This document shows positions 9,138 through 59,784 of a stretch of DNA of 64,000 nucleotides, piece by piece. Made by a program: the position numbers and the translations under genes. This stretch comes from a virus (taxonomy: Duplodnaviria; Heunggongvirae; Uroviricota; Caudoviricetes): the IMG/VR virus record IMGVR_UViG_2537561978_000005; one strand, written 5' to 3'. Position 1 is the stretch's first letter. Each line of letters starts with the position of its first letter. Below the pieces are notes generated by a model. The model had not been told where the DNA came from. It was given only the letters and a program-made list of their open reading frames with translations, and did no database searches.

Positions 9138-9151
9138 TCGCCTTGTTAAGT

Positions 9152-9168
9152 TAAATTTCTAACATAGT
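9152..9168 (-). promoter_or_regulatory. Operator-like motif (TGTTAGAAA family)
   Basis: TTTCTAACA at 9156-9164, between terminator-flanked genes and upstream of the 9338 gene. Confidence 0.4.
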
Positions 9169-9253
9169 GTATTTATATACACTGTTGATCCTGGTGGATG
9201 GGATCGAGTAGGATCGCGGTCACTGCTCCGGTAGCGACTGCCAAAAAAGCAAA

Positions 9254-9276
9254 AGCCGCTTCTCAGCGGCTTTTTG
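9254..9276 (+). terminator. Rho-independent terminator
   Basis: AGCCGCT-tctc-AGCGGCT followed by TTTT. Confidence 0.6.
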
Positions 9277-9337
9277 GGTGTATAAATCCACTGCCATAGA
9301 TTTATACGGTAGATAGATTTTTTCACGGAACTATCTG

Positions 9338-10300
9338 GTGAGTATTTTAAATTCAGTTTCAGTAACTTTCAACACTTCTGAGTATAAAAACAACACTGAA
9401 TACCACAAAAAAATCAAAGGTCATCAGTTGAGTTTTTTTGCTCGTCATAGCGGTCTTCTTTCCCCTTCACATAGCGCCATTATTGCCGAGTTCGCCAACC
9501 TGGCAGGGTCTACCGATGAATACATGATCCGTCGCTCATATGCTGATATGTCCGAGATTACAGGACGCAGTATTTCTACTGTGCGCCGGGCATTTGCTGA
9601 AGCGACGAAGTGCGGAATGCTTGTTAAGCAACATCAGGTAGCGAATAACAATGCCCAGGTGTGTAACGTATATCGGTTTACGACACAATTTCTCCACTTC
9701 ATTCATGTAGCAATGGAGATAGGGGGTAAGCAGGGCATCAAATTTGCCAACGCCACAAAACTGGTTAAGCAGTTGATTTCAAAGGTTCGTTATTTTTTTG
9801 AAACTGGGAACCCCCTGTTCAAATTGAACAAGTCCCCCCATGTTCAAAATGAACAGCCAATAGAAAATAAGAGTCACTCTATAGCCAAAAGAAGAGAAAG
9901 ATCATGCGCGGTTCAGCCAAAGGCTTCACCTGCAGATAGTTCTCAAACGGATAACGGGGTACTGGATAAAAAACCAGTAATCAGGGAAGAACATACCAAC
10001 CACTGCCTGGCGGCGGCAAAAGCGAGAGCTGCAAAGCGTCGTTCAGACGAGGGGCACGCAAAACGGCAGGCTCTGTATCGTACCGCTGAAAATCTGGCAA
10101 AAAAATTTGCATGGATACGTAGTGCCGCTACCGCAGTGAATAAGCCTAAACAATCCAGTGCCCTAGATTTCTCAATGGATTATTCTGGCTCCCAGGGGTG
10201 TGCAACCATTGGTGAAGCCTTTGACCTGATGAAACAGCGTGGCTATCGGTCTGAATTTGACCGTGAGGATTGGTCAATCCCTGCGGGATTTAGGGGATGA
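9338..10300 (+). CDS. Hypothetical DNA-binding protein (HTH-like segment ITGRSISTVRRAFAEA); possible replication or kil-type function
   Basis: 320 aa ORF, GTG start, basic C-terminal region; operator-like motif about 180 bp upstream. Confidence 0.5.
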   Translation: MSILNSVSVTFNTSEYKNNTEYHKKIKGHQLSFFARHSGLLSPSHSAIIAEFANLAGSTDEYMIRRSYADMSEITGRSISTVRRAFAEATKCGMLVKQHQVANNNAQVCNVYRFTTQFLHFIHVAMEIGGKQGIKFANATKLVKQLISKVRYFFETGNPLFKLNKSPHVQNEQPIENKSHSIAKRRERSCAVQPKASPADSSQTDNGVLDKKPVIREEHTNHCLAAAKARAAKRRSDEGHAKRQALYRTAENLAKKFAWIRSAATAVNKPKQSSALDFSMDYSGSQGCATIGEAFDLMKQRGYRSEFDREDWSIPAGFRG

Positions 10301-29890: not shown

Positions 29891-30928
29891 TTACCAGAGC
29901 TTCGCGGCGTACTGCGTTTGGGGGAATGTGTATCCGTAACGTTCTTCGATTGCTTTGCCGTATTTTTTACGAGCTTCATTCAGTTTTATGCCGGTCAGGT
30001 CGTCTCCAGAGGCCATCATTACGTCTAACAATTCCAGATCCATTTTATCCAGCCTTGCCATTGCTTCACGTGATGTACGTATCTTACGCTCAATGATATG
30101 GCGAATAGCCGGATCGGCATCCTCCAGCATCTTAGCGGATTTCTGCTTAAGGCTTTCATTGCGAATATCGATGTTCCTTAAGATGTACGACTTCGCAACG
30201 TAGCTTGGCTGGTGTTTTTCCAGGTCACGAACACGATATAAGTTAAAATCGCCGAGAAGGCTGCAAGGTACCGATTCGACGCCAGAATAAATTGTAATGC
30301 TCCGGCGCTCACCAACATTATTGACAACGGGGATCGTTGTCTTCGGTAGTCTTGCGAAAACCAATGCGCCATGTGCGCCAACTCTAAAGCGAGAAAGGGC
30401 ATTGCTGCCTTCGATGTTTGTTGTCAGCACAACATCTGTATATGCCTCTTTACGCGCCCGGTAGATCTCGCCTTCAGGCTCAGCTTCAAAGAAGCGCTGT
30501 TCTTCTTCAAGAGCACCTACGATTTGAGAAAAAACCCTATTTTTCAGGCTTTTCTTTATGATTTTGTCGTATTTTTTGAGCAATTGTTCACGTGTAAATG
30601 TACGTGTTGTTGTAGCGCTTTGCACAACAACATGCGTGCTTTGATTGGTGTCCTCAATGATGAATGGGATCGGAGAATATACAGACTCAACAATGTTCGA
30701 CGCTTTGCCGTCGGCATCGCGGCACATGTCAACGAAGGCTTTCCATTCAGCAAGACATTTTTCAGCTTCTTCTAATATGTTTTGGTCATGCGTTAATGCA
30801 ACATGGCGGAATTCCTCGCCAGCATAACTGGTATCATGGAAAACAGAGTTTGCGACCACCAGCTCTTTCCACCGTTCAGCGGTTTGCAGGAACCGTTTGT
30901 ACTCTTTCTCGATCGACTTCTTACTCAT
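29891..30928 (-). CDS. Hypothetical protein; candidate master repressor by position and by operator at its own start
   Basis: 345 aa; sits between pacB and lox-cre where P1 carries c1; operator-like motif 20 bp upstream of its ATG; no sequence-level match asserted. Confidence 0.5.
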   Translation of the reverse strand: MSKKSIEKEYKRFLQTAERWKELVVANSVFHDTSYAGEEFRHVALTHDQNILEEAEKCLAEWKAFVDMCRDADGKASNIVESVYSPIPFIIEDTNQSTHVVVQSATTTRTFTREQLLKKYDKIIKKSLKNRVFSQIVGALEEEQRFFEAEPEGEIYRARKEAYTDVVLTTNIEGSNALSRFRVGAHGALVFARLPKTTIPVVNNVGERRSITIYSGVESVPCSLLGDFNLYRVRDLEKHQPSYVAKSYILRNIDIRNESLKQKSAKMLEDADPAIRHIIERKIRTSREAMARLDKMDLELLDVMMASGDDLTGIKLNEARKKYGKAIEERYGYTFPQTQYAAKLW

Positions 30929-30943
30929 TATTCCTACTCGATT

Positions 30944-30960
30944 TAGTTTTCTAACATAAA
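30944..30960 (-). promoter_or_regulatory. Operator-like motif
   Basis: TTTCTAACA at 30948-30956, reads ATGTTAGAAAAC on the strand of the downstream gene. Confidence 0.4.
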
Positions 30961-31137
30961 ATTACTATGACAAATTTATGTCGAATAACAGAGTGAGTAA
31001 AGGATCGAACTGTGATTTTTTGTCATCAAATTTAGAAAACCAACTGTATAAACCACGCTTCGCAAATTAAAGACCATGAAGGCAACGTGTTACTGGTCAG
31101 AATCAATCTGTGATGGATTAAAAAAAATCGCCATTTT

Positions 31138-31171
31138 ATAACTTTAAATAATTGGCATTATTTAAAGTTAG
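31138..31171. other. lox-like recombination site (13-bp inverted arms, 8-bp spacer)
   Basis: ATAACTTTAAATA-ATTGGCAT-TATTTAAAGTTAG; arms match each other 12/13 and match loxP arms (ATAACTTCGTATA) at 10/13; 150 bp upstream of the Cre homologue. Confidence 0.7.
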
Positions 31172-31322
31172 GCTATAATTATGGGTAGATGATCAGTATT
31201 GACATCACTGAAAATACGCGCCTCGAATCAAAGGCTTGAATCTTGAAAATTAACTTATAGCTACCCTGTCATTTTTATATTTTTCGCGTAGCGTTATCTG
31301 TATATAGAGGTTAAATAGTTTC

Positions 31323-32351
31323 ATGAGTGAATTAATTATCTCTGGCAGCTCCGGTGGTTTTCTGCGCAACATTGGCAAAGAGTACCAGGAGGCCGCAGAA
31401 AACTTTATGCGGTTCATGAATGACCAGGGGGCTTATGCGCCGAATACTCTGCGCGACCTCCGGTTGGTGTTTCATTCATGGGCGCGCTGGTGTCACGCTC
31501 GCCAGCTTGCCTGGTTTCCGATCTCACCAGAAATGGCCCGCGAGTATTTTCTTCAGCTGCATGATGCCGATCTGGCTTCGACCACCATTGATAAGCACTA
31601 CGCCATGCTGAATATGCTGCTTTCGCATTGTGGCCTTCCGCCACTTTCGGATGATAAAAGTGTTTCTCTGGCTATGCGGCGCATCCGGCGCGAAGCGGCA
31701 ACTGAAAAAGGCGAACGAACAGGCCAGGCTATACCGCTTCGGTGGGACGATCTGAAACTGCTCGACGTCCTGTTGTCCAGGTCAGAACGGCTGGTGGACC
31801 TGCGCAACCGGGCTTTTCTCTTTGTTGCATACAATACGCTGATGCGTATGTCGGAAATCTCGCGTATTCGTGTAGGAGATCTGGATCAAACAGGTGACAC
31901 TGTCACGCTACATATTTCACACACGAAGACAATAACGACCGCCGCCGGGCTTGATAAGGTGCTTTCCCGTCGCACTACCGCTGTGCTGAATGACTGGCTG
32001 GATGTTTCCGGGCTTCGCGAACATCCTGACGCAGTGCTGTTCCCGCCGATACACCGTAGCAATAAGGCCAGGATCACGACAACGCCCCTTACTGCACCTG
32101 CAATGGAGAAAATATTCAGCGACGCCTGGGTGTTGCTGAATAAAAGAGATGCTACGCCAAACAAAGGAAGATACCGGACGTGGACCGGGCATAGTGCACG
32201 CGTCGGGGCCGCTATTGATATGGCTGAAAAGCAGGTGTCTATGGTGGAGATCATGCAGGAAGGAACCTGGAAGAAACCGGAAACACTTATGCGGTATCTT
32301 CGCCGTGGCGGCGTGTCTGTGGGGGCTAATAGCCGCCTGATGGATTCGTAA
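31323..32351 (+). CDS. cre: Tyrosine recombinase, divergent Cre homologue
   Basis: 342 aa; alignable along its length with Cre from memory (WFP, VSLAMRRIRRE, RNRAFLFVAYNTLMRMSEISRIRVGDL, WTGHSARVGAAIDMA, C-terminal catalytic Tyr in RYLRR region); roughly 45% identity. Confidence 0.75.
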   Translation: MSELIISGSSGGFLRNIGKEYQEAAENFMRFMNDQGAYAPNTLRDLRLVFHSWARWCHARQLAWFPISPEMAREYFLQLHDADLASTTIDKHYAMLNMLLSHCGLPPLSDDKSVSLAMRRIRREAATEKGERTGQAIPLRWDDLKLLDVLLSRSERLVDLRNRAFLFVAYNTLMRMSEISRIRVGDLDQTGDTVTLHISHTKTITTAAGLDKVLSRRTTAVLNDWLDVSGLREHPDAVLFPPIHRSNKARITTTPLTAPAMEKIFSDAWVLLNKRDATPNKGRYRTWTGHSARVGAAIDMAEKQVSMVEIMQEGTWKKPETLMRYLRRGGVSVGANSRLMDS

Positions 32352-48664: not shown

Positions 48665-48981
48665 AAGTTGAATTGAAAAACTCTCCGATGTACATTCACT
48701 ACCGATTGGCACACCGGTCAACTTTTTGAGACAAACTGTTTAGTTTTTCGTATTATTGCCTCCGCCATACCTATGGCGGTGCAATATAGGTGGCTGAAAA
48801 GCCCCCGTTGACTCACGGTGTTCCAGCCTTTATTGCGCCGCCACCAGACCGTGGAACAGTCGATGGCGGCTCCGAAAGCAAGGAGTCACAACACTATGAA
48901 CAACTACAGTCTTTTCCCATCACTCGTCTTCCACCACTCACGCGATAATCTGCATTCTTTACTCGCGCTGGAGGTGTCAAA

Positions 48982-49149: not shown

Positions 49150-49253
49150 AATACTGACTGTTGCGCCCTGGCATTATCGTGGGGTATATTTCTACGGCAC
49201 CTTAGAAAAACGGGTGCCGGGATTGAGACCCCGGATAATGCAAAAGGCGACAC

Positions 49254-49276
49254 AGACGCCGAAAGCGTCTTTTTTT
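49254..49276 (+). terminator. Rho-independent terminator
   Basis: AGACGC-cgaaa-GCGTCT followed by TTTTTT. Confidence 0.65.
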
Positions 49277-49324
49277 GTGTCATGCCATCGCACAGCCATA
49301 CGTAGCGTATAGCTCCAAGATCAA

Positions 49325-49400
49325 TGGTAGTGCTGGCTGGGCTGCCGAAAGGCAGGCCGGTTCCCTTTTGCGCCGGTAGTCTCAACCCAGCCAGTGCTAC
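49325..49400 (+). ncRNA. Candidate c4-like antisense regulatory RNA (second specificity)
   Basis: Perfect 16-bp inverted repeat GGTAGTGCTGGCTGGG / CCCAGCCAGTGCTACC enclosing CTGCC-GAAA-GGCAG hairpin; CCCTTTTGC (49362-49370) is complementary to GCAAAAGG (49442-49449) at the SD of the downstream icd-like gene. Confidence 0.35.
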
Positions 49401-49461
49401 CGCCATTGAGATTGAGACCTCACGCGGTAGCTCCTTAAATTAGCAAAAGGAGGCTGCCAAT

Positions 49462-49677
49462 ATGGCTACTATCCCTACCCCAACTCATTCTGAATTTATC
49501 TGGCGTTTCTATTCCTGCCAAAAGCACCTGTATATCTGCGTCATGGCTGCTACCGAATCAGAGGCGCGCTCATACCTTCCCGAAGAACCCTGCATTTTTG
49601 CTGCTCGCTTCACTCTTGATGCGATGGAGATCCTCAATTACTGGAATCTGCCGATGAACTGCGTGGAGGTGCGCTGA
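49462..49677 (+). CDS. Icd-like small protein (second copy)
   Basis: 71 aa; AAAGGAGG RBS; paralogue of 10714..10938. Confidence 0.5.
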   Translation: MATIPTPTHSEFIWRFYSCQKHLYICVMAATESEARSYLPEEPCIFAARFTLDAMEILNYWNLPMNCVEVR

Positions 49678-50618
49678 TGAATCTGTCCATCTCTCAAAAA
49701 GCGACAATGACCAGCATTGAGATCGCGGAGCTGGTAGGAAGTCGCCCAGATAGTGTGAAGAGAACTATCGAAACACTGGCTAAAAAGAGTGTGATCCAAT
49801 TTCCACAATCTGTGGAAATTGAAAATAAACAATCAGTTGGCCCTCGTCGATTTTCCAAGGCTTACATCTTTGAAGGCGAACAAGGAAAACGAGACAGCAT
49901 CATTGTCGTCGCGCAGCTCTCTCCGGAATTCACCGCCCGGCTGGTGGACCGCTGGCGCGAACTGGAGAATGCCCGGGTACAGTTAAAATCAAAAGCCGAA
50001 ATCCTGGCTGAAATGGCGCAAATGCATCTTGAGCATGAACGCCGGATCAACGCCGTAAATGCCCAGGTAGCCGAGGTATCAGCACAAGTATCGATGGTCG
50101 CTGAAACCGTCGAGCAAATAAAGAAAGGCAATATTCCGGAAGGCTACATTGGCTACCGCCAGTTGGCGGCGAAATGTGGCCTGACTGAAGCCAAATGTCG
50201 CAACCTGGTTAACGCTTACCGGATTCCCACCGATACGCATGAGTTTTTAACTCCAGATGGTTTGCTTGCGCGACGCTCCATTGTGGCCCTGGCCCCCTTC
50301 CGGAAAGCCTTTAAGCAGGTGATGTCAGAGGCAGAACCACGCAATAAACGCTGGTATCATCCAAAGATGGGGATGTTTCAGGCAATCCACCATCCTGTGC
50401 CTGAAAGTCCAAAGGCAAACCTGTCGTTGCATACCGCCAGAGAGAGGATTAAAACAGGCTATGCAATCGTATGCCGTCGAGCATCCTGGCCTGAAGGTGT
50501 ATGGGTGTGGCCCGAAGGTGGATCACGAAAGCACTGGCGCACTATCCGGGATGGGAAAATCCATGCGATTGATTTAGCTCCAGAGGATGTTGTTGCTACG
50601 GACTGGATTGTTAGTTAA
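49677..50618 (+). CDS. Rha-family antirepressor (Ant-like), intact
   Basis: 313 aa; MTSIEIAELVGSRPDSVKRTIETL pRha motif; start overlaps icd stop. Confidence 0.65.
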   Translation: MNLSISQKATMTSIEIAELVGSRPDSVKRTIETLAKKSVIQFPQSVEIENKQSVGPRRFSKAYIFEGEQGKRDSIIVVAQLSPEFTARLVDRWRELENARVQLKSKAEILAEMAQMHLEHERRINAVNAQVAEVSAQVSMVAETVEQIKKGNIPEGYIGYRQLAAKCGLTEAKCRNLVNAYRIPTDTHEFLTPDGLLARRSIVALAPFRKAFKQVMSEAEPRNKRWYHPKMGMFQAIHHPVPESPKANLSLHTARERIKTGYAIVCRRASWPEGVWVWPEGGSRKHWRTIRDGKIHAIDLAPEDVVATDWIVS

Positions 50619-50648: not shown

Positions 50649-50677
50649 AACTACTAAATAACCGGATTCTCCGCACG

Positions 50678-50965
50678 ATGAAGAAAATAGATTTCACTTA
50701 CTCTGCTGCCACAATCCAGCGACGTTTCAGTCTCATAAGGGAAGTGGAACTATCAAAAAACTGCTATCAAATTCTACTGGATGAAGAGTTTTCACTGATG
50801 GTTATAGCAGAAAAATTGGCTATGCCGAATGACCGACACAAGGTCATAGCCAGCCTCGATCTGGTGACAAACAGATACTGGGAGACAGAGGAACTACATG
50901 AAGCGGGAGTAATTCGTGGCCTGATGGAGAATTCCGTTCCCCGTCGTTATAGTGTGATGAGCTAA
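50678..50965 (+). CDS. Hypothetical protein
   Basis: 95 aa ORF, weak RBS. Confidence 0.4.
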   Translation: MKKIDFTYSAATIQRRFSLIREVELSKNCYQILLDEEFSLMVIAEKLAMPNDRHKVIASLDLVTNRYWETEELHEAGVIRGLMENSVPRRYSVMS

Positions 50966-51111
50966 AACTCACCTGCACACCGTCAGGCCCAACGCAAATA
51001 AATGAAACATCCCGCTCTTGGTGTTTCAGTGAAATAGCTCATTTTTAGCTTGGAAGCAACTTGATTATGAGCTAAGCCTGACATACACTTCAGCGAGAAA
51101 ATGATCAAGTT

Positions 51112-51153
51112 AAAGACACAAAAGCTCTGTTTTAACAGAGCTTTTGTGTCTTT
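51112..51153. repeat. Perfect 18-bp-arm palindrome (hairpin) at cargo boundary
   Basis: AAAGACACAAAAGCTCTG-ttttaa-CAGAGCTTTTGTGTCTTT. Confidence 0.8.
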
Positions 51154-51289
51154 AAAACATAGATATCATGCCATATATAGTGCCAAAATTAGTTTTAGAC
51201 ACTATATATATTATAAAGGTAAAAACCGCTTCTACTTTTAACATCCACAGAAAAAGAAAGCGGTTATAGATAAGGGAAAAGGAGGGGTT

Positions 51290-51595
51290 ATGCTCTATGC
51301 GGTTCCTCAGCAAGCTTCTGATTCTTTGAAGTTAATCAAGACTGTACTTCAGCTTATAGCATCTCAACAAGAAGTGTCACAGCAGTTAAAGTTACGGGTT
51401 TATGAGGTGATCAGAGAAGCCTCAAACTTAAGTGTAGATAAAGGTGATCAATTACAGATTCCTTCTCACAGAGAGTCCATCTCGCTCGCGGTAGAGATAC
51501 GCCACACTAAGGCGCTCGCCCAGGTGCTAACCAAAGTAACTAGCGAAGATATGTTAGAACCCGTAATGGCCCGGAATGTATTAGAGTACATTTAA
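51290..51595 (+). CDS. Hypothetical small protein, first gene of AT-rich operon
   Basis: 101 aa, strong RBS AAGGAGGGG; stop overlaps next start (TAATG). Confidence 0.6.
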   Translation: MLYAVPQQASDSLKLIKTVLQLIASQQEVSQQLKLRVYEVIREASNLSVDKGDQLQIPSHRESISLAVEIRHTKALAQVLTKVTSEDMLEPVMARNVLEYI

Positions 51596-52668
51596 TGCTT
51601 GCATTTACACAACTTACATTAGTTCGAAATAAGCTAAGGGAGATATCAGAATCTCCCTATTTTTCTAAAGACATGCATGAATATCTTGCTGTTCTACAAG
51701 AAGCGGTAGATAAGCTCTATGAAAACCATGTGAATGTTGCTGATAAAATAATTGCGGATTGTACTTTTTTTATCACCGATGCAGTTAATTTTTTCACTGG
51801 CAGTACTACAAAGAAAATTCCCTACGAGATTGTTTATTGCTTAAATGATGCCTGTAAAAAATGGATAAGTGAAAAAACACTTATAACCACAGCCCTATCT
51901 CCAGATATGCATGGGTTTTATTTTAAGTCTGTAAACAAGAATTTGTATTCTTTATTTGATGAAGTTTTAAATGTCAAATTCGAGGTCGAATTAATTCAGA
52001 TTTCATTACCTGAAATGTACAGAAGACGACCATTATGCTCTATACCTTTATATCACGAATTGGGACATTTCGTTGATATTAGCAAAGGTATTTCTGAGCT
52101 TGCCTGTCTTAACTATCGTTCCAAGGACAAAGGCACACTTCCAGGACCAGAATGGAGTAATCTACCTGATGTTATTTGGATAAATCATTGCAGAGAATAT
52201 TTTGCAGATCTATTTAGTGCCCAATTTATTGGAAAAAGTGGGGTAGATTTCTTATACAAATTAGCTGGCTCTCATCCTGCAAGCTATACTCACCCATCCA
52301 CAGAAGATAGAGTTAAAATTGTAAGCGACTTTTTGAACAAAGTGGAAAATCCAGTTGTTGGCATGTTCAATGCTGTGATATCAGCCTTACATAAGGGTGG
52401 GCAGATTATTTCTCCTTGTTTGACATTGCCGACACCTTTGCTTGATGTGAAATCAGCTTTTGATAATGTGCGTCCTTTTGTTATTCGCGACCACAATGAA
52501 ATGCATGCTTTTATTAACAGCAGCTGGCAGTACTTATGCTCTGAATGGGAAAAACCTACGGGTATATGGTCTGGGTTGTCAAAAGAAGCCATAGAAAAAA
52601 CTATAAATGATTTGGTTGAAAAATCGATTCGAAACGTAATGATTCTTGAAAAATGGAGTGCACAATGA
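51595..52668 (+). CDS. ImmA/IrrE-like (M78-type) HExxH zinc-metallopeptidase-domain protein
   Basis: 357 aa; PLYHELGHFVD followed about 40 residues later by HCREYFADLFSAQF, matching the HExxH...E..FA..LL arrangement of M78 peptidases; about 35% GC. Confidence 0.5.
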   Translation: MLAFTQLTLVRNKLREISESPYFSKDMHEYLAVLQEAVDKLYENHVNVADKIIADCTFFITDAVNFFTGSTTKKIPYEIVYCLNDACKKWISEKTLITTALSPDMHGFYFKSVNKNLYSLFDEVLNVKFEVELIQISLPEMYRRRPLCSIPLYHELGHFVDISKGISELACLNYRSKDKGTLPGPEWSNLPDVIWINHCREYFADLFSAQFIGKSGVDFLYKLAGSHPASYTHPSTEDRVKIVSDFLNKVENPVVGMFNAVISALHKGGQIISPCLTLPTPLLDVKSAFDNVRPFVIRDHNEMHAFINSSWQYLCSEWEKPTGIWSGLSKEAIEKTINDLVEKSIRNVMILEKWSAQ

Positions 52669-53282
52669 ATCTCCTAAGCAAAGCTGAATTGCTGCAATAT
52701 TATGAATCAGAAGAACCTGAGTCGTTGTTCATTGAACCTCTTCTAAATAAAAACCAAATTGGAAACTTCACCATAGACCTTAGACTTGGTTACGATTTTT
52801 TAGTGTCTATTATGACAAGGAAGCCGTCAATAGAGTTAATTCCCTCAAAAAACAATGATACTCATCAACCAATCAGAACATTTTTCCAGGAAACAAGGAG
52901 AGATCTTGGGGATAGGTTCATTGTTTACCCGAATCAAGTGGTACTGGCAACAACATTAGAATATGTTTGTTTGCCACCAGATTGCTACGCTGATGTATTG
53001 TCCAGAAGCAGCTATACAAGGCTTGGTCTTTCATTAAATACCATGATACAACCAGGGTACAGAGGCTGTATATCTTTAGAGTTATTTAATCATGGGAATA
53101 GCCCTGTAGAACTTATTGTTGGATCTCGCATATGTCAAATTCGTATATTCAAGAATGAAACTGTCGGTGAATACATAAGTCATGAGTCTCACAGGAAATA
53201 TTTCGGAAATGTGAGGCCAACCGTCTCAGCAGCAGAAAGTGATAATGAATTAAATATGCTGGAAAAGATCCGACAAAAATGA
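52653..53282 (+). CDS. dCTP deaminase-family (dUTPase superfamily) enzyme
   Basis: 209 aa; IDLRLGYDF, LATTLEYVCLP, SRSSYTRLGLSLNT, GYRGCISLELFNHGNSPVEL, RICQIRIF align with E. coli Dcd core blocks from memory; 16-nt overlap with upstream gene. Confidence 0.55.
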   Translation: MECTMNLLSKAELLQYYESEEPESLFIEPLLNKNQIGNFTIDLRLGYDFLVSIMTRKPSIELIPSKNNDTHQPIRTFFQETRRDLGDRFIVYPNQVVLATTLEYVCLPPDCYADVLSRSSYTRLGLSLNTMIQPGYRGCISLELFNHGNSPVELIVGSRICQIRIFKNETVGEYISHESHRKYFGNVRPTVSAAESDNELNMLEKIRQK

Positions 53283-53370
53283 AGACTTTAATGCTTTATA
53301 TTATAAAAACATACAGCGACAACGCAGCCACCAAGATGTGTTGTCGCCATGTTCAAAGTGCTAACACAGT

Positions 53371-53763
53371 TTAAAAATCACCTGCGCGCTGTTTTTCAAG
53401 CACAGATTTAACATTTGGCACTTTCCCTTTAAAAGAATGGAAAGTGCCACATTTTTCTGTTTTAACTTCGCGCAGAGCTTCGCCATCGGCGTTCTGCCAT
53501 TGATGGGATAATGTCATATCACCGCGAGAAGGAACATCCAGCGAGTACAGCGTGTAAGTTCCCCCCATCTCCGCATACTCCTGGAACACATAGCTCATTA
53601 CGTCAGATTCAGTTTTTCGGTGTACGTTATCAACCTTATTCCCATTCAGAAATATGGCATCTGGATAGATTTTTATATCAAACCGACCGCACTTAACTTG
53701 TAAATTTCCGGCGCTCGCGATCAAAGGGAAAGACGCCAGTAAAGCAATTGTCAATCTTTTCAA
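53371..53763 (-). CDS. Secreted hypothetical protein
   Basis: 130 aa, signal peptide MKRLTIALLASFPLIASA, TTG start after GGAGG. Confidence 0.5.
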   Translation of the reverse strand: MKRLTIALLASFPLIASAGNLQVKCGRFDIKIYPDAIFLNGNKVDNVHRKTESDVMSYVFQEYAEMGGTYTLYSLDVPSRGDMTLSHQWQNADGEALREVKTEKCGTFHSFKGKVPNVKSVLEKQRAGDF

Positions 53764-53783
53764 TTCTGCCTCCGCTGCGTAAC

Positions 53784-54407
53784 TTATTGCCCGTATTTTT
53801 TACACCATTGCTCTGCCATTTGTTTGGCTAAAGGCCCGGCTACTGCACTGTATTCTGCTGTTTTACTTTGCACACATGAAGCAGATGGTTTTTTATTTCG
53901 CTGCTCGGTTAGTTTGCGCTCATAAGCCATCATGCTATCGAACCCGGCAATATCACTTTGGCGAAGCATTCCCTTTTTAACCAAAAATTGCTGCCCCTCG
54001 GGCACCAACGCAAGCATAAAAAGTGGTTGCAATAACTCACCTAATCCTTGCTGGCGATACACTTCGAATTGCTGCCATCCCTGACTTAATCTGGAAAGAG
54101 TATCTTTGGTTGAATAACCTGTTTTTGTTATAGCTTTGTCCGTCAGATATGCTGTATATGCAAAAACGCAAAAGTCAGTTTTACCAATAAACTGAGTTCC
54201 AACAGGCCGTAATGGAATGCCCTCCCTCTTGCAAAAGTCCATAATGGCCGCTTGTGAATGATCCCCACCAGCATTATTCATAACCTGCTGCCCTGCCCTG
54301 AATTGTGCAGGTAACGCAGTTGCATTGGCAGTATTAGCAGATACGCATCCCAACATAGCCGCGAGCGCGGCCCCTAAAACCCTTAACTTCACTACACCAT
54401 CCTTCAT
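53784..54407 (-). CDS. Putative lipoprotein
   Basis: 207 aa, lipobox LGC after hydrophobic h-region (VLGAALAAMLGCVS). Confidence 0.55.
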   Translation of the reverse strand: MKDGVVKLRVLGAALAAMLGCVSANTANATALPAQFRAGQQVMNNAGGDHSQAAIMDFCKREGIPLRPVGTQFIGKTDFCVFAYTAYLTDKAITKTGYSTKDTLSRLSQGWQQFEVYRQQGLGELLQPLFMLALVPEGQQFLVKKGMLRQSDIAGFDSMMAYERKLTEQRNKKPSASCVQSKTAEYSAVAGPLAKQMAEQWCKKYGQ

Positions 54408-54623
54408 GTAAACAAAATGAAGTTTTATGTTATAAAAACAATTAACTACATCAACATGATTTAGGCCAAATTTCGGTCAAAAAATAAAATCCACAAAAAG
54501 TGGTTGACACTATTTTGGAAATCACAAACTGCACATAATCCATCGCGCTAACGGCTCCCGTTGAAGGTTCTTTTGACGATTAACTTTCAGCCGAAGCGCG
54601 GTAGGGAGTCATAACGCCAAAGC

Positions 54624-54649
54624 AGGCCGCCATGTGCGGCCTTTTTTTG
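54624..54649 (+). terminator. Rho-independent terminator immediately upstream of a gene start
   Basis: AGGCCGC-catgt-GCGGCCT followed by TTTTTTT; ends 27 nt before ATG 54676. Confidence 0.6.
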
Positions 54650-54675
54650 TATCCGTCATCCGTGGAGGAAGGAAA

Positions 54676-55329
54676 ATGGAAAAGATCGCAATATTCAGCC
54701 TGACCACCAGCAAGCCTCAAATGCTCACTGCAATACTGAAAGACGGTGCTCTCATTATTAACGAAGTAAAACCCCTTCCCGCGTCAGCATTGGAGCAAAA
54801 GCAAAAAATTCCTCCAGCTATAGCAGCCCTGCGGAAAAGCAAATTTAAGGTTCTAGTAGACGAAATTACGCCAACGATCTCCGCTGGCACCGGAGCAAGC
54901 CAGGTGACTCTCAAGACCCGTCATGCCGATGGTAGAGCAGCAATCATCGTTGGGATGGAAAGATACAGAGAGTTAAAACTCCAGAAACTATTATCCCTGC
55001 CGCAAAATAACAAAGGTGCTTTCGAAATCCCCGACTCTATCGTTGATACCGAATACAACGGTAACGGAGAAGAAGTCTACAGGGTGAACTGGCAGGATAT
55101 CAGGCCGGAGCATATTTTGATGATCCTGTGTTGCTACGCGACCGTATACCACAACGTTGCCAGTGCAGATTATGTAGAGCAGATGACCGGTACAGTCGAG
55201 AAAGAGCAAAAAACAGGCATACTCGCTTCGTTCCTGTCCATTATTGGGCATGAAAAAGTTAAAGCAGGCACCTCCCAGCCAAAGTCACTGGCTGGGAAAG
55301 AAGTTGATGAAGATACCGTGATACTTTGA
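54676..55329 (+). CDS. Hypothetical protein
   Basis: 217 aa from ATG after GGAGGAAGG (track start 54634 would span the terminator). Confidence 0.55.
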   Translation: MEKIAIFSLTTSKPQMLTAILKDGALIINEVKPLPASALEQKQKIPPAIAALRKSKFKVLVDEITPTISAGTGASQVTLKTRHADGRAAIIVGMERYRELKLQKLLSLPQNNKGAFEIPDSIVDTEYNGNGEEVYRVNWQDIRPEHILMILCCYATVYHNVASADYVEQMTGTVEKEQKTGILASFLSIIGHEKVKAGTSQPKSLAGKEVDEDTVIL

Positions 55330-55657
55330 TCACATTAGTAGCTTTGTTAACTCCCTCAATACCAGGTAGAAGAGTAACAAAAATATTGACGCGAGTATTT
55401 GAGTGGTCAATGAAGCGTTCATAAACAGATCAATTAGCATTAATAATTCGAATATAACATCCATGTCATTCACTCCGTTTAATTTTTAATCTAATGCCAG
55501 CAAATGAAGCTGGCCCCCGCACAAAGATTAATGAAAGTCACTTGTCACCAGTGAGGGGATTTATGAACCACATCCCCCTGAACTGGTGGCCTGTCTGTTT
55601 CTCACATTTCACACCCTGCATACAGTTTCCCCCAGGTTATGACTGAGAGGCTTTGTT

Positions 55658-55987
55658 ATGGGCTATAGCAGACTCGACGACAGGTACATTGAAGACGATA
55701 TTTTTCGTGCGCTGTTTCACCAGGAAATGATTAAGCGGGTATCGGAGTATCACTCTGATAATTTCCAGTACACGATAAAGATTGATGAAGTATATCGTTC
55801 AGACCTTGCAGCCTACCGGGCGTATGGCAATGCAGATTTGCGCTGGGTATTCCGGGTGCTGGTGGGCCATGAGTCAGAAATGGAAGAAATGCCCGCCGGG
55901 ACCACGTTAACTCTTCCTGATGTGGCATGGCTGAGGAACAAGATCCGTGATTACGCGAGCGCGGAACCGGAGATAGAAAATGCCTGA
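55658..55987 (+). CDS. Hypothetical protein
   Basis: 109 aa, RBS GAGAGG; overlaps next gene by 8 nt. Confidence 0.5.
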   Translation: MGYSRLDDRYIEDDIFRALFHQEMIKRVSEYHSDNFQYTIKIDEVYRSDLAAYRAYGNADLRWVFRVLVGHESEMEEMPAGTTLTLPDVAWLRNKIRDYASAEPEIENA

Positions 55988-57173
55988 TTTCCTGAAAAAC
56001 CAGGACGGGCGCTATATCACTGACGGCCTGTCCTCTAAGGACTTCACGCGTTTATTCGACCTTATCAGGAAAGAACAAACCCGTAAGCGCCGACAAGCTC
56101 ACCGGACGCTGACGCCAGGTAGACTGAGGAACAAATCCGCCGAAGATATTCTCAAGTTAGGGAAGAAAAAAGGCGGCACGTTCTTCACGCGAGACGACCT
56201 GAAAGGTTTCGAAAAGCTACGGAGTAAAACACGCGAAAAATATGACAGCAAGACGGCTGGCATCACATACGCCCAGCTGGTGGCATCCAGCCAGGCAATC
56301 GATATTAAGCGTGCAAATAACGCCGTGGATGACGGATCTGGTATCAAAAGAGCTACACCCGTATCTCTTCGCCACAACGTGATTAATATCCGCGTAGAAG
56401 CATCGGATATATCCGTCCACCAGCACCATATCGTCCGGATACGCTTTGAAGAATGGGATCAGATGGTTGATGACATCGCAGAAGACGATAAATCAGCTCT
56501 GAAAATCACTAAATCACTGTGCGCCGGGCGAGTGTCTTTCGATTGTGACTGTGGTCGTCATCAATACTGGTATCGTTACATCGCTACTGCGGGTAACTTT
56601 GCCCTGGCCCCGCCAAAAGAATACGCCTATCCAAAAGTTCGTAACCCTAAGCTACAAGGCGTCGCCTGTAAACACGTGATCCACTCAATGACGCGGTTAC
56701 AGTCCGCAAGTTGGCAAATGAGTATTGCTCGTGCACTACAAAAGGCTGCAACGCAAATTGCATTTGGTGACGATCGCCGACGTACAACCAAACACTTCTC
56801 AAAAGAAGACGAGAAGGAGTTTAATCGCAATCGTAGCAGTAAAACGAACGTTGAAGCCGCCAAACGCGAATGGAGACTCTATCAGAAGCGCCAGGCAGCT
56901 TTAAGTACAAAACTGGCAAAGGACAACGGCAAGATCGACAAACTACGTGACCAATTGACCAAGGCCAGAAAGTTGTCAGATGCACAGAAAAAACGGGCGG
57001 CAGCAAAAGAAGCGGCCTTGCAACGTGAGAAACAGAAAAACAAGGAGCTTCAGCAACGCCTTGCCGATCAGTTCGCACTGAAGAAGCAGGCGTTCATTGA
57101 TGCGCTTGTCATGGCTGGAACACCACCAGCACAAGCTGAAAAAATGTTCATGGAGTATGTAAAAAAAGCATAA
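55980..57173 (+). CDS. SWIM-type zinc-finger protein with basic coiled-coil C-terminus
   Basis: FDCDCGRHQYWY...LQGVACKHVIHS fits CxCxnCxH; 397 aa. Confidence 0.5.
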   Translation: MPDFLKNQDGRYITDGLSSKDFTRLFDLIRKEQTRKRRQAHRTLTPGRLRNKSAEDILKLGKKKGGTFFTRDDLKGFEKLRSKTREKYDSKTAGITYAQLVASSQAIDIKRANNAVDDGSGIKRATPVSLRHNVINIRVEASDISVHQHHIVRIRFEEWDQMVDDIAEDDKSALKITKSLCAGRVSFDCDCGRHQYWYRYIATAGNFALAPPKEYAYPKVRNPKLQGVACKHVIHSMTRLQSASWQMSIARALQKAATQIAFGDDRRRTTKHFSKEDEKEFNRNRSSKTNVEAAKREWRLYQKRQAALSTKLAKDNGKIDKLRDQLTKARKLSDAQKKRAAAKEAALQREKQKNKELQQRLADQFALKKQAFIDALVMAGTPPAQAEKMFMEYVKKA

Positions 57174-57183
57174 ACCACACATA

Positions 57184-57201
57184 GCCTAGCTGCCTAGGCT
57201 A
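57184..57201. terminator. Hairpin between convergent genes
   Basis: AGCCTAG-ctgc-CTAGGCT. Confidence 0.4.
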
Positions 57202-57206
57202 GGCTT

Positions 57207-57935
57207 TCATCTTTTTGAAAAATCAATTTCCGTTTTATCAAATAAATTTGAAATATCAGCAACCAATTTATTAAAATCATGATCGCCATTATAAAGCGAA
57301 GTCTTCTTTATTGCCATTACAAAATCATATAACTTTTCTGGGGAGTCAATACCAACCCCTCTACTTTTAAAAAGCTCAATGATAACTCCAACATCATCAT
57401 ATAATAATTTTATTGCCGCCATAATCTCTTTTTGCTGCCTAAGCAATCTCTCAAGTTCATTTTTATTTTCATCCATAATTCTTTTGTTGAATTGTGTATC
57501 ATTAATACTTTTTATTATTTCAGTCTCTTTTATTTGCAACGCCTTTCTTTTATTTTGATCCATGTCGGCATCCAAATACCTTATCTCTGTATATATTTTA
57601 CTTGTTAGCTTTGATACGCAAAGAGTGACAATCGGAGCTGCAATTGATGCAATAATTCCAAAAATAAATGGCAAGCAAAAATGATAAAACCAAGGAGACA
57701 AAACGCCTTCATAAACTAGAGGAATCTTACCTCCAACAAATGTTACAGATAAAGTATATAGGATATCATCCTTTGACTTCATCAATATTAGTATATCTTT
57801 CCAATTAATAATTAGAAAAGAAATGAATATATATGCAAACACTTTATTAAAAAGCTTGTCTTTTATGGCATCTCCAAAAGATACTTTGATTAGATCATTT
57901 TCAGTCAATTTTTCTGTTGATGAATCTGTATTCAT
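57207..57935 (-). CDS. AT-rich membrane protein, candidate abortive-infection-type effector
   Basis: 242 aa, about 29% GC; two TM helices then Lys/Glu-rich coiled coil. Confidence 0.55.
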   Translation of the reverse strand: MNTDSSTEKLTENDLIKVSFGDAIKDKLFNKVFAYIFISFLIINWKDILILMKSKDDILYTLSVTFVGGKIPLVYEGVLSPWFYHFCLPFIFGIIASIAAPIVTLCVSKLTSKIYTEIRYLDADMDQNKRKALQIKETEIIKSINDTQFNKRIMDENKNELERLLRQQKEIMAAIKLLYDDVGVIIELFKSRGVGIDSPEKLYDFVMAIKKTSLYNGDHDFNKLVADISNLFDKTEIDFSKR

Positions 57936-58076
57936 ATAAACTACCGTGATTTCTAATATCTATTTTATGAAAATTCATTTCCGGTTCGTTATCGAACATC
58001 GGTTCGACCGCACGCAGTGCGGCCTCATAATCTTGTTCTGTACGGATAGATTTAATGTTCATTAATTACAAAGGAA

Positions 58077-58102
58077 AGCCCACTTGCTAAGTGGGCTTTT
58101 TG
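58077..58102 (+). terminator. Terminator-like hairpin
   Basis: AGCCCAC-ttgctaa-GTGGGCT followed by TTTTT. Confidence 0.45.
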
Positions 58103-58118
58103 TATGTGTTTTACTATA

Positions 58119-58457
58119 TCAGGCTGCTTTTTTATTCAGGTTCCGCTGAGAAATAAATTTTTCAGCAGTATTGATACGACTTAACTCTTCCTGAACGCGC
58201 ATATCATTTTCGACTTCCCACAGGTCTACTGCGGTCTGAAGATTAATCCAAAAATCTACAGAAGTATCGAATGCTTTTGCCAGGCGATATGCCATATCCA
58301 TCGTTAGCTTACGATTATTATTAACAAGAGCACTTACGGTGTTACGATGAACATGAAGTATTTCTGCTAACTCGTTGATCTTCAGCTCTAACGGCTCCAG
58401 GTATTCGTACAGCAGGATATCACCTACGGTCGTCGGTTTTCTGGTTGCCTGTTTCAT
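58119..58457 (-). CDS. higA: HigA-type antitoxin (XRE-family HTH)
   Basis: 112 aa; HTH LAEILHVHRNTVSALVNN; downstream of the toxin as in higBA. Confidence 0.7.
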   Translation of the reverse strand: MKQATRKPTTVGDILLYEYLEPLELKINELAEILHVHRNTVSALVNNNRKLTMDMAYRLAKAFDTSVDFWINLQTAVDLWEVENDMRVQEELSRINTAEKFISQRNLNKKAA

Positions 58458-58527
58458 TTTTTGCCCTTACTAGCGTGCGTATTAAGTGGACTCTGGTCAG
58501 AACCCGGTCCGTAACCGGGTATCTGTT

Positions 58528-58830
58528 TTAGTATTTGTGAGGGTCGAGATACAAGTCCTCGGCCTTTCCGTTAACCCACCTAAAAATTAACCTATATTGC
58601 TTATTCACCCTTACTGATGAATAGCCATTTAGCTTCCCTGACAGTTCCTCATACCGATTACCTGGTGGTGATCTTAAATCCTTACAGGTAGTTGCGGCAT
58701 TGATAATGTCCAACTTCCGTGACAATGTCATATGAATATCAGGAGGTATCTTTCTATGTGGTGTTGAAAATTCAAAAAAATCATCAAGCCACGCATCCCT
58801 GAAATCCTTTATGTTAATTTTTTTGGTCAT
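58528..58830 (-). CDS. higB: HigB-type toxin (RelE/ParE superfamily)
   Basis: 100 aa; C-terminal GYSSVRVNKQYRLIFRWVNGKAEDLYLDPHKY resembles the HigB core. Confidence 0.65.
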   Translation of the reverse strand: MTKKINIKDFRDAWLDDFFEFSTPHRKIPPDIHMTLSRKLDIINAATTCKDLRSPPGNRYEELSGKLNGYSSVRVNKQYRLIFRWVNGKAEDLYLDPHKY

Positions 58831-58992
58831 TAGTCATTTGATCCTCCGTGATGATTACCGAATGCCATAACTATAGCGCACCGTTGCACTGTGCGCAAGT
58901 GCATTTTATGAATTCCCCCTCCTTCATCCAAAATCACAATCTCCAGAAAATCTTCCTTTCGATACCTGACAGATCGACCTTTGAGGATGCTT

Positions 58993-59784
58993 ATGGGCCG
59001 TTTTGACGAATGGTTTGCTGACGATGCAAACCTGGCAAGTAAGGAGTCAGAACATGACAGCACGCAGAGAGAAACGCCAGCGCCGATTGAAGCGAATGCA
59101 GGAGGCGCGCCGGAACATGGCAATACCGGTTCGGATTCATTCAGCATTCTGGAAGAGCAACCCGCCGCCAAAGCTGATAGCCATGATAATTTTGCTGATA
59201 GCAACGGTGGCCTTACTCCGGATGCTGGCGAATCAGATATAGCCATACTTCCATCTTCCCTGGCTGGCAGAGAACCGACTCCACAGTTAAAAGCACGCTA
59301 TAACGGGCATAAAGCCTTTAACGACCAAATCCGCGCAGACTGGATGCTGATTATTGAATCCAGCCCAGACGCGTTTCAGGCTCTCTTATATCGACCAGAT
59401 GTTGGCACATATGGGGTAGTCAGCGACGAAACAGGAGAAGAGTCATTCACCGAACTGGATAACAACCAACGCGAACTGACTTACCAGGAACCTGAAATCG
59501 TTTATGTGCTGGATAACCCTGACGGGCGTGACTCTTTCCATGCGATTGACGCAGACGGTGAGCAGGATGGCTTAACCGATGATGTTCTGATTCTGCGTAT
59601 TGCAGCAAATAACGTCCCCGTCGGCTCAATTCTTGAATGGAATGAAGAGATGGTAAACGGCGTAGCGCGCCGCTGGTGGTACGTGCACCGTATTTTTAGC
59701 TACGGCACACAGCATGTTGGTTCGCTTTACTACTGCATACCTGCCAGGAATTTTGATACGACTCAAAACGGAGTGATCGAATGA
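58993..59784 (+). CDS. Hypothetical protein (acidic N-terminal half), possible virion component
   Basis: ATG 58993 after SD GAGGA (track start 58981 is TTG); coupled to next gene. Confidence 0.5.
   Translation: MGRFDEWFADDANLASKESEHDSTQRETPAPIEANAGGAPEHGNTGSDSFSILEEQPAAKADSHDNFADSNGGLTPDAGESDIAILPSSLAGREPTPQLKARYNGHKAFNDQIRADWMLIIESSPDAFQALLYRPDVGTYGVVSDETGEESFTELDNNQRELTYQEPEIVYVLDNPDGRDSFHAIDADGEQDGLTDDVLILRIAANNVPVGSILEWNEEMVNGVARRWWYVHRIFSYGTQHVGSLYYCIPARNFDTTQNGVIE

Follow-up and report, generated by a model that had tools for sequence, protein, structure and literature searches.

Three accessory slots in the backbone of a D6-like phage-plasmid, and a proposed protease-switched anti-phage cassette

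Is the variable part of a phage-plasmid a single block of cargo, acquired and exchanged as a whole, or a set of separate sites at which accessory genes come and go between conserved ones? The question is raised by the interval between about 50.65 and 58.9 kb of a 64,000-nucleotide stretch of viral DNA (IMG/VR record IMGVR_UViG_2537561978_000005; the whole stretch is referred to below as the window), which an earlier note, made from the letters alone, had taken for one compositionally distinct cargo hotspot lying between the gene ant and the structural genes. By comparing this interval with its relatives, we arrive at a different reading, to which we assign a probability of about 0.72, namely that it consists of a conserved backbone interrupted by three accessory slots (A, B and C), and that slot A holds a 2.4-kb cassette of three genes (here called A, B and C after their order) which we propose to be a protease-switched anti-phage system. 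The coordinates of all features are collected in Table 1.

A conserved backbone with three independent slots

The window is a D6-like, P1-related phage-plasmid. With the segment 48.0-61.5 kb as megablast query, phage D6 of Escherichia matched 74% of that segment with an identity of 98.8%, and 466 plasmid records gave matches, 20 of them with a coverage of at least 80%; D6 itself has been assigned to the P1g2 subgroup among the P1-like phage-plasmids (PMC10879196). Relatives were collected by anchoring on gene 25, which gave 47 loci in all, 38 of them from IMG/VR, 3 from genomes and 6 from annotated plasmids or phages (designated by L numbers where they need to be told apart), and 19 window proteins were mapped by tblastn on every one of them. 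Across these loci the backbone ant-pmgF-(A)-mat-(B)-26-25-(C)-7-24-6, with the slots in parentheses, is conserved. The order ref-icd-ant-pmgF-mat-26-25-7-24-6 is maintained, with ant and pmgF on the left and 7-24-6 on the right in nearly all loci, and the tail and baseplate part is retained even where the identity of gene 25 is 56%. The genes mat, 26 and 25 (54676-57173), which have homologues in P1, keep a fixed order and are 96-100% identical in close relatives, mat alone reaching 98-100% there and being detectable down to 31% identity, while the pmgF-like gene is 80-100% identical in most loci.

The variation is confined to three accessory slots, which are independent of one another and whose contents are gained, lost and exchanged between close relatives through recombination at breakpoints that recur. 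Among the 47 loci, slot A (pmgF to mat) measures 1335-3727 bp, slot B (mat to 26) 0-1667 bp and slot C (25 to 7) 20-2899 bp, and we distinguished 7, 6 and 13 architectures, respectively, in loci most of which have a gene 25 that is 96-100% identical. In the window, slot A contains the cassette together with two genes for exported proteins (of 130 and 207 amino acids (aa), below the exported pair), slot B is empty, and slot C contains orf73, higBA and an antitoxin gene in decay. Three different states of slot C accompany the cassette (that of the window, that of L002 and that of L006 and L029), and three likewise accompany the exported pair without the cassette; since the slot states recombine independently in this way, we regard the region as a conserved backbone that carries several small hotspots.

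The breakpoints can be placed almost to the base pair. Relative to D6, slot A is swapped from 50903, within the 3' end of the pmgF-like gene, to 54350, within the signal-peptide codons of the gene for the 207-aa protein. The breakpoints of slot C recur at about 57166, 57973/4, 58069 and about 58925, beside bidirectional terminator-like hairpins, those on the left clustering at 57163-57168 and those on the right at 58923-58931. The variable zone of the window thus begins at about 50.9-50.97 kb and ends at about 58.93 kb, so that the left edge of 50.65 kb given in the earlier note lies too far out; the last 60 bp or so of the pmgF-like gene already belong to the variable zone, homology ending at 50903 with D6 and at 50954 with cassette-less relatives.

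Composition and orientation are what had suggested a single island. The mean GC content of the window is 0.473 (standard deviation 0.040 in sub-windows of 700 bp), and at this resolution only three stretches of the 64 kb fall below 0.40. The two deepest troughs, at 51.0-52.9 kb and at 56.8-57.9 kb (minimum 0.294 at 57.2 kb), lie within the interval, where the gene with the HExxH motif (gene B) has a GC content of 0.358, the dCTP deaminase (Dcd) gene 0.375, higB 0.386 and orf73 0.292, so the drop in GC in several genes described in the earlier note is real. So is the mixed orientation, with pmgF, the three-gene operon, mat, 26 and 25 on the plus strand and the two exported-protein genes, orf73, higA and higB on the minus strand. 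The conserved genes have a GC content of 0.44-0.50 against 0.29-0.45 for the variable ones, and the GC content of third codon positions (GC3) separates core (0.46-0.57) from cargo (0.24-0.44) with zero overlap (Mann-Whitney U=80/80, p=2e-4). The cargo is therefore compositionally foreign, in GC as in GC3, but the signal marks particular genes and not the entire interval, for mat, 26 and 25, which occupy 54.7-57.2 kb in its middle, have normal GC. The third low-GC stretch (30500-31400, GC 0.38-0.39) comes just after a terminase-like gene, where it overlaps a gene for 345 aa on the minus strand (29891-30928) and the spacer in front of a Cre-like recombinase gene (31323-32351).

One contiguous island, acquired and evolving as a unit, would explain why, in this part of the genome, every gene of low GC lies within 50.9-58.9 kb and why orientation is mixed there; yet it would have to accommodate three conserved P1 core homologues of normal GC in its middle and slot states that assort independently, and we consider it very improbable. 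The opposite view, that the whole region is core and that relatives share its genes and their order, does hold for mat, 26, 25 and, mostly, pmgF. It is refuted for the three slots, whose length varies by as much as 2.4 kb in A, 1.7 kb in B and 2.9 kb in C, and whose gene content varies too, among loci with a 96-100% identical gene 25, and for the region as a whole it has next to no credibility. What survives of the hotspot first proposed is therefore the variability of three sub-intervals beside 96-100% identical genes, and the accessory or defence-type nature of their contents, which include toxin-antitoxin (TA) modules, exported proteins, a simB-like gene, an insertion sequence (IS) and a candidate defence cassette; its continuity does not survive, being broken by the mat-26-25 core of about 2.5 kb. 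Two genes that had been counted as cargo belong to this core. The gene described as led by a terminator is indeed preceded by a terminator-like hairpin but is mat, and the supposed SWIM-finger protein, whose sequence carries a CxC...CxH motif and gave no SWIM match in a Pfam scan, is the homologue of the P1 tail protein gp25.

The position of slot C deserves comment. According to the P1 annotation, genes 26-25-7-24-6-5 of P1 make up a single uninterrupted operon that follows the late promoter LP26 and in which gene 7 begins 3 bp after gene 25, and in an Enterobacter relative 20 bp separate these two genes. Slot C is therefore an insertion point within an ancestral late operon. A comparison of the P1 LP26 sequence with the window gave no convincing match to a P1-type late promoter upstream of either 26 or 7.

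Accessory hotspots (moron or cargo regions) have been described in general for P1-like phage-plasmids (PMC10879196, PMC7969092), and the present slots resemble them in their conserved flanks, variable interior, deviant composition, TA and defence-type genes, IS elements and exchange by recombination. They differ in that the D6 lineage has three small ones, split by essential morphogenesis genes, and in that one of these splits a late structural operon which in P1 is unbroken. We found no description of the three-slot anatomy of the D6 lineage or of the split of the late operon in the accessible literature, which did not cover the D6 genome paper (Gilcrease & Casjens 2018). Variable regions of phage-plasmids with TA and defence genes being already known, both features are conceptually ordinary.

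A three-gene cassette inserted in slot A

Slot A takes several forms. Twelve loci carry the two leftward exported-protein genes, ten carry orf80 of D6 (a small membrane protein) with the simB-like gene, others hold mixtures of the exported pair with orf80 and simB-like content, and four, the window, L002, L006 and L029, combine the exported pair with the rightward three-gene cassette. The cassette is flanked by two imperfect copies of a 21-bp direct repeat, both present in 4/4 cassette-bearing loci, whereas the cassette-less loci checked (L003 and L010) have one copy only, which is the 3' end of the 130-aa gene, and this pattern we read as the footprint of a discrete insertion. A third copy at 58868-58888 on the minus strand (16/21) was treated as a chance match, about 0.17 such matches being expected in 64 kb by our own binomial estimate, and it overlaps the palindrome in the higBA promoter region. 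The cassette occurs in 12 PLSDB plasmid records, compared with 119 that have the mat-26-25 backbone (about 10%), and in 8/5426 complete Escherichia coli genomes, in each case on a plasmid.

The three genes overlap at their ends, B and C by 16 nt, and the two larger ones are the HExxH and Dcd-like genes that had been recognised from the letters, an assignment that stands. Protein C consists of the DCD domain alone; it scores 113.3 bits against TIGR02274 (cut-off 92.8) and matches the PHROG dCTP deaminase family (PHROG 1663). Its residues R118, S119, R123 and E143 align with R110, S111, R115 and E138 of E. coli Dcd, of which we take E138 to be catalytic and S111 and R115 to bind the nucleotide (structures 1XS1 and 1XS4), and protein C is accordingly predicted to be a catalytically intact Dcd. 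In protein B, a putative zinc metallopeptidase, H154-E155-x-x-H158 and E201 are invariant in 25 homologues, E201 being the probable third zinc ligand. By fold, protein B is putatively M48-like and not M78. It has no Pfam match at E<=0.01, and thus none to PF01435, no NCBIfam or PADLOC match, and only noise in a sequence search against the PDB; of its homologues with precomputed Pfam assignments, P0066 alone has PF01435, while P0047, P0053 and P0102 have PF07737. The family is small, with 215 clusters at E<=1e-30 among 1.84 billion representatives. Protein A, which is helical, matches nothing in Pfam, NCBIfam or PADLOC.

The genes are preceded by a structured leader (folding z = -6.45) with two inverted repeats, IR1 and IR2, both of which are retained through compensatory changes in the versions of the cassette found in Dickeya and Proteus. 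IR1 overlaps a promoter-like site (51152-51181); it is conserved in Dickeya, and at the same place Proteus has a different palindrome with 24-bp arms, again with compensatory changes. All 10 pairs of IR2 are kept in most of 5 divergent sequences, one pair being changed on both sides. The possibility that these palindromes are intrinsic terminators was rejected, as on either strand the T-runs come before the stems. The leader contains one more inverted repeat, AACCGCTTC...GAAAGCGGTT at 51224-51262, which stands just before the ribosome-binding site of gene A and is not conserved in Dickeya or Proteus.

Outside the D6-like plasmids, in bacteria most of which are distant, a gene for a protein of about 100 aa (101-108 aa) lies directly before gene B and a DCD gene follows it in 11/11 sampled loci, from Dickeya, Proteus, Aeromonas, Methylophilus, Rhizobium, Bradyrhizobium and Geobacter and from four metagenomic contigs, including a divergent branch with a B protein of 400 aa. 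On one metagenomic contig, B and C are fused into a single protein of 631 aa (P0232, L060 2050-3945), and a 101-aa A-like gene still precedes the fusion. Known defence genes adjoin 7/11 of these loci, often with an integrase or transposase next to them: RosmerTA (RmrA 4.6e-105), type I restriction-modification (R-M, twice), an E1-E2/Bil-like gene, QatABCD, a Bub-type ubiquitin-like set, HEPN_AbiV with an S subunit, and type IIG R-M. In Dickeya a complete RosmerTA (L048 7779-9521) and in Proteus an equally complete QatABCD (L055 1265-5824) lie immediately beside the triad in islands bounded by integrases. The small protein, the putative zinc peptidase and the predicted intact Dcd thus appear to form an obligate, horizontally mobile unit.

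Proposed function of the triad

We propose, tentatively and at slightly below even odds, that this triad is an undescribed anti-phage system, rare but widely dispersed, which would deplete dCTP by means of a different fold, would be armed by proteolysis, and, carried by D6-like phage-plasmids in a slot dedicated to exchange, would protect the host as well as the phage-plasmid against competing phages. The role in defence is one that we infer. Activated protein C would convert dCTP to dUTP, and either the depletion of dCTP or flooding with dUTP would act in the manner of abortive infection. Protein B would be the switch that, once infection is sensed, removes an inhibitory partner, most simply A, or processes C, and the two leader palindromes would set the basal expression.

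Since many phages encode Dcd, one could also think of an auxiliary nucleotide-metabolism module of the phage, raising the supply of dUTP and dTTP for its own replication and having no part in defence. The equivalog-level score of protein C as a dCTP deaminase, its match to the PHROG family of that name and the location of the cassette on a phage genome all agree with this. A module for supply would not, however, explain the strict linkage to a metallopeptidase and a small protein in 11/11 loci, or the finding that most triad loci are chromosomal islands of bacteria, free of phage genes and beside R-M, Qat, Rosmer, Bub or AbiV. Moreover, the cassette is present in only about 10% of D6-like plasmids, and E. 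coli already has a housekeeping dcd gene. We therefore judge nucleotide supply to be quite unlikely.

Known dCTP-deaminase defence relies on one protein of 576 aa that joins a zinc-dependent cytosine-deaminase domain to an N-terminal kinase-like domain (Tal et al., 10.1101/2021.04.26.441389; AvcD, 10.1101/2021.03.31.437871). The triad would have in common with it the predicted chemistry from dCTP to dUTP, a potentially toxic effector that is silent until infection, and neighbourhoods of the defence-island kind. Protein C, in contrast, has the unrelated, trimeric Dcd/dUTPase-like fold (PF22769), lacks a kinase domain and is always accompanied by the metallopeptidase and the small protein; judged by its sequences, the cassette is not a member of that family. 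A second comparison is with Clover, in which a dGTPase (CloA) is paired with a regulator (CloB), an accessory protein restraining a toxic effector that depletes nucleotides (PMC12265719). In the triad, too, an operon partner is proposed to control the toxicity of such an effector. The effector of Clover is an HD dGTPase, however, and its regulator a nucleotidyltransferase making signal nucleotides, while the partner in the triad is a putative peptidase, which would imply control by proteolysis instead of by nucleotide signals.

That unrestrained nucleotide depletion is toxic (PMC12265719) also bears on a further alternative, in which the triad is a TA-like addiction module that stabilises a mobile element and has no anti-phage role, with Dcd as the toxin, A as a labile antitoxin and the peptidase as the degrader of A. 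The cassette does sit in a plasmid region that collects TA modules, and its compact overlapping operon with a palindromic leader is what one finds in autoregulated TA loci. Many TA modules are, on the other hand, abortive-infection systems, so that addiction would be compatible with defence, and the chromosomal copies lie in defence-type neighbourhoods and not on plasmids. Addiction as the sole function thus seems unlikely to us, and we keep to defence as the proposed role.

Immunity that is switched by a metallopeptidase has a precedent in the Lit peptidase. A further case is the CapP/CapH metallopeptidase switch on CBASS, the cyclic-oligonucleotide-based anti-phage signalling system (10.1101/2022.04.27.489752). 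With these, as with ImmA/IrrE-type M78 peptidases, the triad shares an HExxH peptidase beside an immune effector, which the peptidase would plausibly activate, in response to a signal of infection or damage, by cleaving a small partner. It differs from CapP/CapH and the M78 type in that protein B is M48-like by its putative fold, in that protein A has no recognisable helix-turn-helix (HTH), and in that all three genes are co-directional and form one operon; the capP model of PADLOC-DB did not match protein B, although the same model matched a neighbour of the triad in Dickeya. We found no description of an M48/Dcd system or of an A-B-C triad in the accessible literature.

Several points weigh against the reading presented here. 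The triad matches none of the PADLOC models and has no backing from one of the DefenseFinder type, and Dcd is a common phage gene that serves the phage's own supply of dTTP (PHROG 1663). The AlphaFold2 model of protein A is of low confidence, with a predicted local distance difference test (pLDDT) score of 55, which makes a fold search unjustified, and the near-neutral charge of the protein gives no argument on DNA binding either way. The link to defence genes comes from 11 hand-sampled loci without a formal background rate, and the B-C fusion is seen in two metagenomic contigs only, where an assembly frameshift is possible. The sample of 47 loci is redundant, containing many near-identical IMG/VR and PLSDB elements, so that the counts per architecture are not frequencies. 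Lastly, the functions considered below for the exported pair and orf73 are read purely from signal peptides, membrane topology and allele diversity.

Other cargo and implications for the D6 lineage

The exported pair occupies the place that the simB-like gene has in D6. The 130-aa gene is present in some relatives and is elsewhere replaced by orf80 of D6 and the simB-like gene, and homology to D6 resumes at 54350 within the gene for the 207-aa protein, which shares with the D6 simB-like protein its first 19 aa alone. The earlier note had called both products lipoproteins; this is probably right for the 207-aa protein, which has a lipobox, and not for the 130-aa protein, which has a plain signal peptide. 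No match to the 207-aa protein was obtained by tblastn against phage records, which left no ground for a link to P1 Sim. The idea that slot A corresponds to the sim locus was dropped as well, a position of P1 sim next to gene 26 not being borne out by the P1 annotation. It is no more than a reasonable guess that the exported pair acts in exclusion at the level of the envelope.

In slot C, orf73 is the AT-rich membrane protein that had been recognised earlier, and two transmembrane segments are indeed predicted. Its N-terminal part of about 115 aa, with the two hydrophobic helices, is near-invariant and the C-terminal part of about 125 aa hypervariable, giving alleles that are 36-99% identical overall. 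All homologues that were found lie on E. coli contigs, of which the longest has about 90 kb, the size of a D6-like plasmid. The contrast between the two halves of the protein would be expected of a sensor or effector under diversifying pressure. The exported pair and orf73 gave no PADLOC, Pfam or NCBIfam match, and they are most plausibly superinfection-exclusion or abortive-infection functions.

The remaining genes of slot C are of the TA type, and elsewhere the slot holds orf73 alleles, the orf72 HTH gene of D6, a HigB_toxin gene or a RelE/ParE-HigA pair and other small genes, in various combinations. A 294-bp deletion relative to D6, which joins positions 9476 and 9770 of the D6 locus at 57973|57974 of the window, has truncated orf72. 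Intact orf72 is a PF01381 (HTH_3) gene that has a HigB_toxin gene as its partner in other relatives, and because its partner elsewhere is that toxin, orf72 in the window is an orphan antitoxin gene in decay. Slot C has thus undergone serial TA replacement, in which a HigB_toxin gene was displaced by the RelE/ParE-HigA pair and left a decaying orphan behind. The higBA pair had also been recognised from the letters, and for HigA this is confirmed by the family match; the toxin is named after identical RefSeq proteins, its NCBIfam scan giving a weak, sub-threshold YoeB match only. With the toxin gene first, the pair is that of D6 (99-100% identity), and HigBA type II TA modules have been noted for D6 and related plasmids (PMC6799933); the pair itself is no different from the known one, and what is new is its context of successive TA replacement. 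It probably serves plasmid maintenance, defence or both, and the inverted repeat in its promoter region is possibly a HigA operator.

Slot B measures 331 bp in 25 or more loci and 0-68 bp in distant relatives. Where it is filled, it contains a second higBA pair, a TA pair of the Gp49 (RelE-like)/HTH type, or an IS element. The last of these is seen in L022 (approximately 8195-9468), where an IS with two open reading frames (ORFs), one of them transposase-like and of 301 aa, lies between mat and 26, so that slot B also takes transposable elements. The empty slot of the window carries, directly after mat, a strongly hydrophobic ORF of 47 aa (55330-55473, minus strand) whose C-terminal half, LLLFYLVLRELTKLLM, is conserved in relatives (family F15) and where D6 annotates orf77; it may encode a small membrane peptide.

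To the left of the region, just upstream of icd and ant, Rfam models matched a C4 antisense RNA (76 bits, 49197-49407) and isrK (59 bits, 48769-48848), which is consistent with a P1-type immI region. A second C4-like copy lies about 500 bp further upstream and is sub-threshold, at 40 bits against a gathering score of 45. Scans with Rfam and for tRNA genes gave no match inside the interval from 50.65 to 58.9 kb.

Table 1 Features of the region in window coordinates
Feature	Position	Strand	Evidence and remarks
ant	49677-50618		D6 annotation and PHROG
pmgF-like gene	50678-50965	+	D6 orf81, annotated 'similar to P1 pmgF'; conserved left flank
Left 21-bp direct repeat, TAAAACTCACCTGCACACCGT	50963-50983	+	17/21 match to right copy
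Inserted 2.4-kb cassette (structured leader and genes A, B, C)	50984-53371	+	Absent from L003 and L010 exactly between the repeat copies
IR1, cassette leader	51110-51155		Perfect palindrome, 22-bp arms
IR2, second inverted repeat, ATATATAGTG / CACTATATAT	51173-51209		
Gene A, 101-aa helical protein	51290-51595	+	
Gene B, 357-aa soluble protein	51595-52668	+	Putative M48-like Zn-metallopeptidase
Gene C, 209-aa Dcd-family dCTP deaminase	52653-53282	+	PF22769 1.3e-30
130-aa exported protein, slot A cargo	53371-53763	-	Signal peptide, no lipobox
Right 21-bp direct repeat	53372-53392	+	Doubles as 3' end of 130-aa gene
207-aa probable lipoprotein, slot A cargo	53784-54407	-	Lipobox LGAALAAMLGC, Cys21 (PROSITE-type)
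Terminator-like hairpin ahead of mat	54624-54642	+	7 pairs, 6 of them G-C, then T-run
mat (maturation control) homologue	54676-55329	+	D6 orf78, annotated 'similar to P1 mat'; core, separates slots A and B
Slot B, empty state	55330-55657		About 331 bp between mapped gene ends
Gene 26, baseplate wedge subunit	55658-55987	+	PHROG 1269 2.3e-36; D6 and P1 annotation; core
Gene 25, tail protein	55980-57173	+	PHROG 1722 4e-197; 57% identity to P1 gp25; core
Bidirectional terminator-like hairpin	57182-57205		Left border of slot C
orf73, 242-aa two-transmembrane membrane protein, slot C cargo	57207-57935	-	GC 0.29
D6 orf72 remnant (HTH antitoxin-type gene)	57974-58069	-	Left by 294-bp deletion
Bidirectional terminator-like hairpin between TA modules	58073-58101		Recurrent breakpoint
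higA antitoxin	58119-58457	-	TIGR02607 7.9e-30, 102.5 bits against cut-off 47.7
higB toxin, RelE/ParE superfamily, upstream of higA	58528-58830	-	RefSeq name of identical proteins
Inverted repeat TGCACT-N7-AGTGCA, higBA promoter region	58885-58903		Between higB and gene 7; possibly HigA operator
Gene 7, tail protein	58981-59784	+	Conserved right flank

For a phage-plasmid lineage that is widespread in E. coli, Salmonella and Shigella, the three slots provide a base-pair map of the sites at which cargo is taken up, one of them inside the late tail operon, and slot C is a place where TA modules are serially replaced, leaving decaying orphan antitoxin genes behind. The hypervariable orf73 family constitutes a second candidate for exclusion or abortive infection, restricted to this lineage. 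The cassette is a concrete and cloneable defence candidate of 2.4 kb that is absent from PADLOC and whose three genes are kept together in all 11 other loci sampled, across several proteobacterial classes. If its proposed role is true, immunity by depletion of dCTP would have been invented at least two times with unrelated folds, and a protease-gated logic of control would be added to it.

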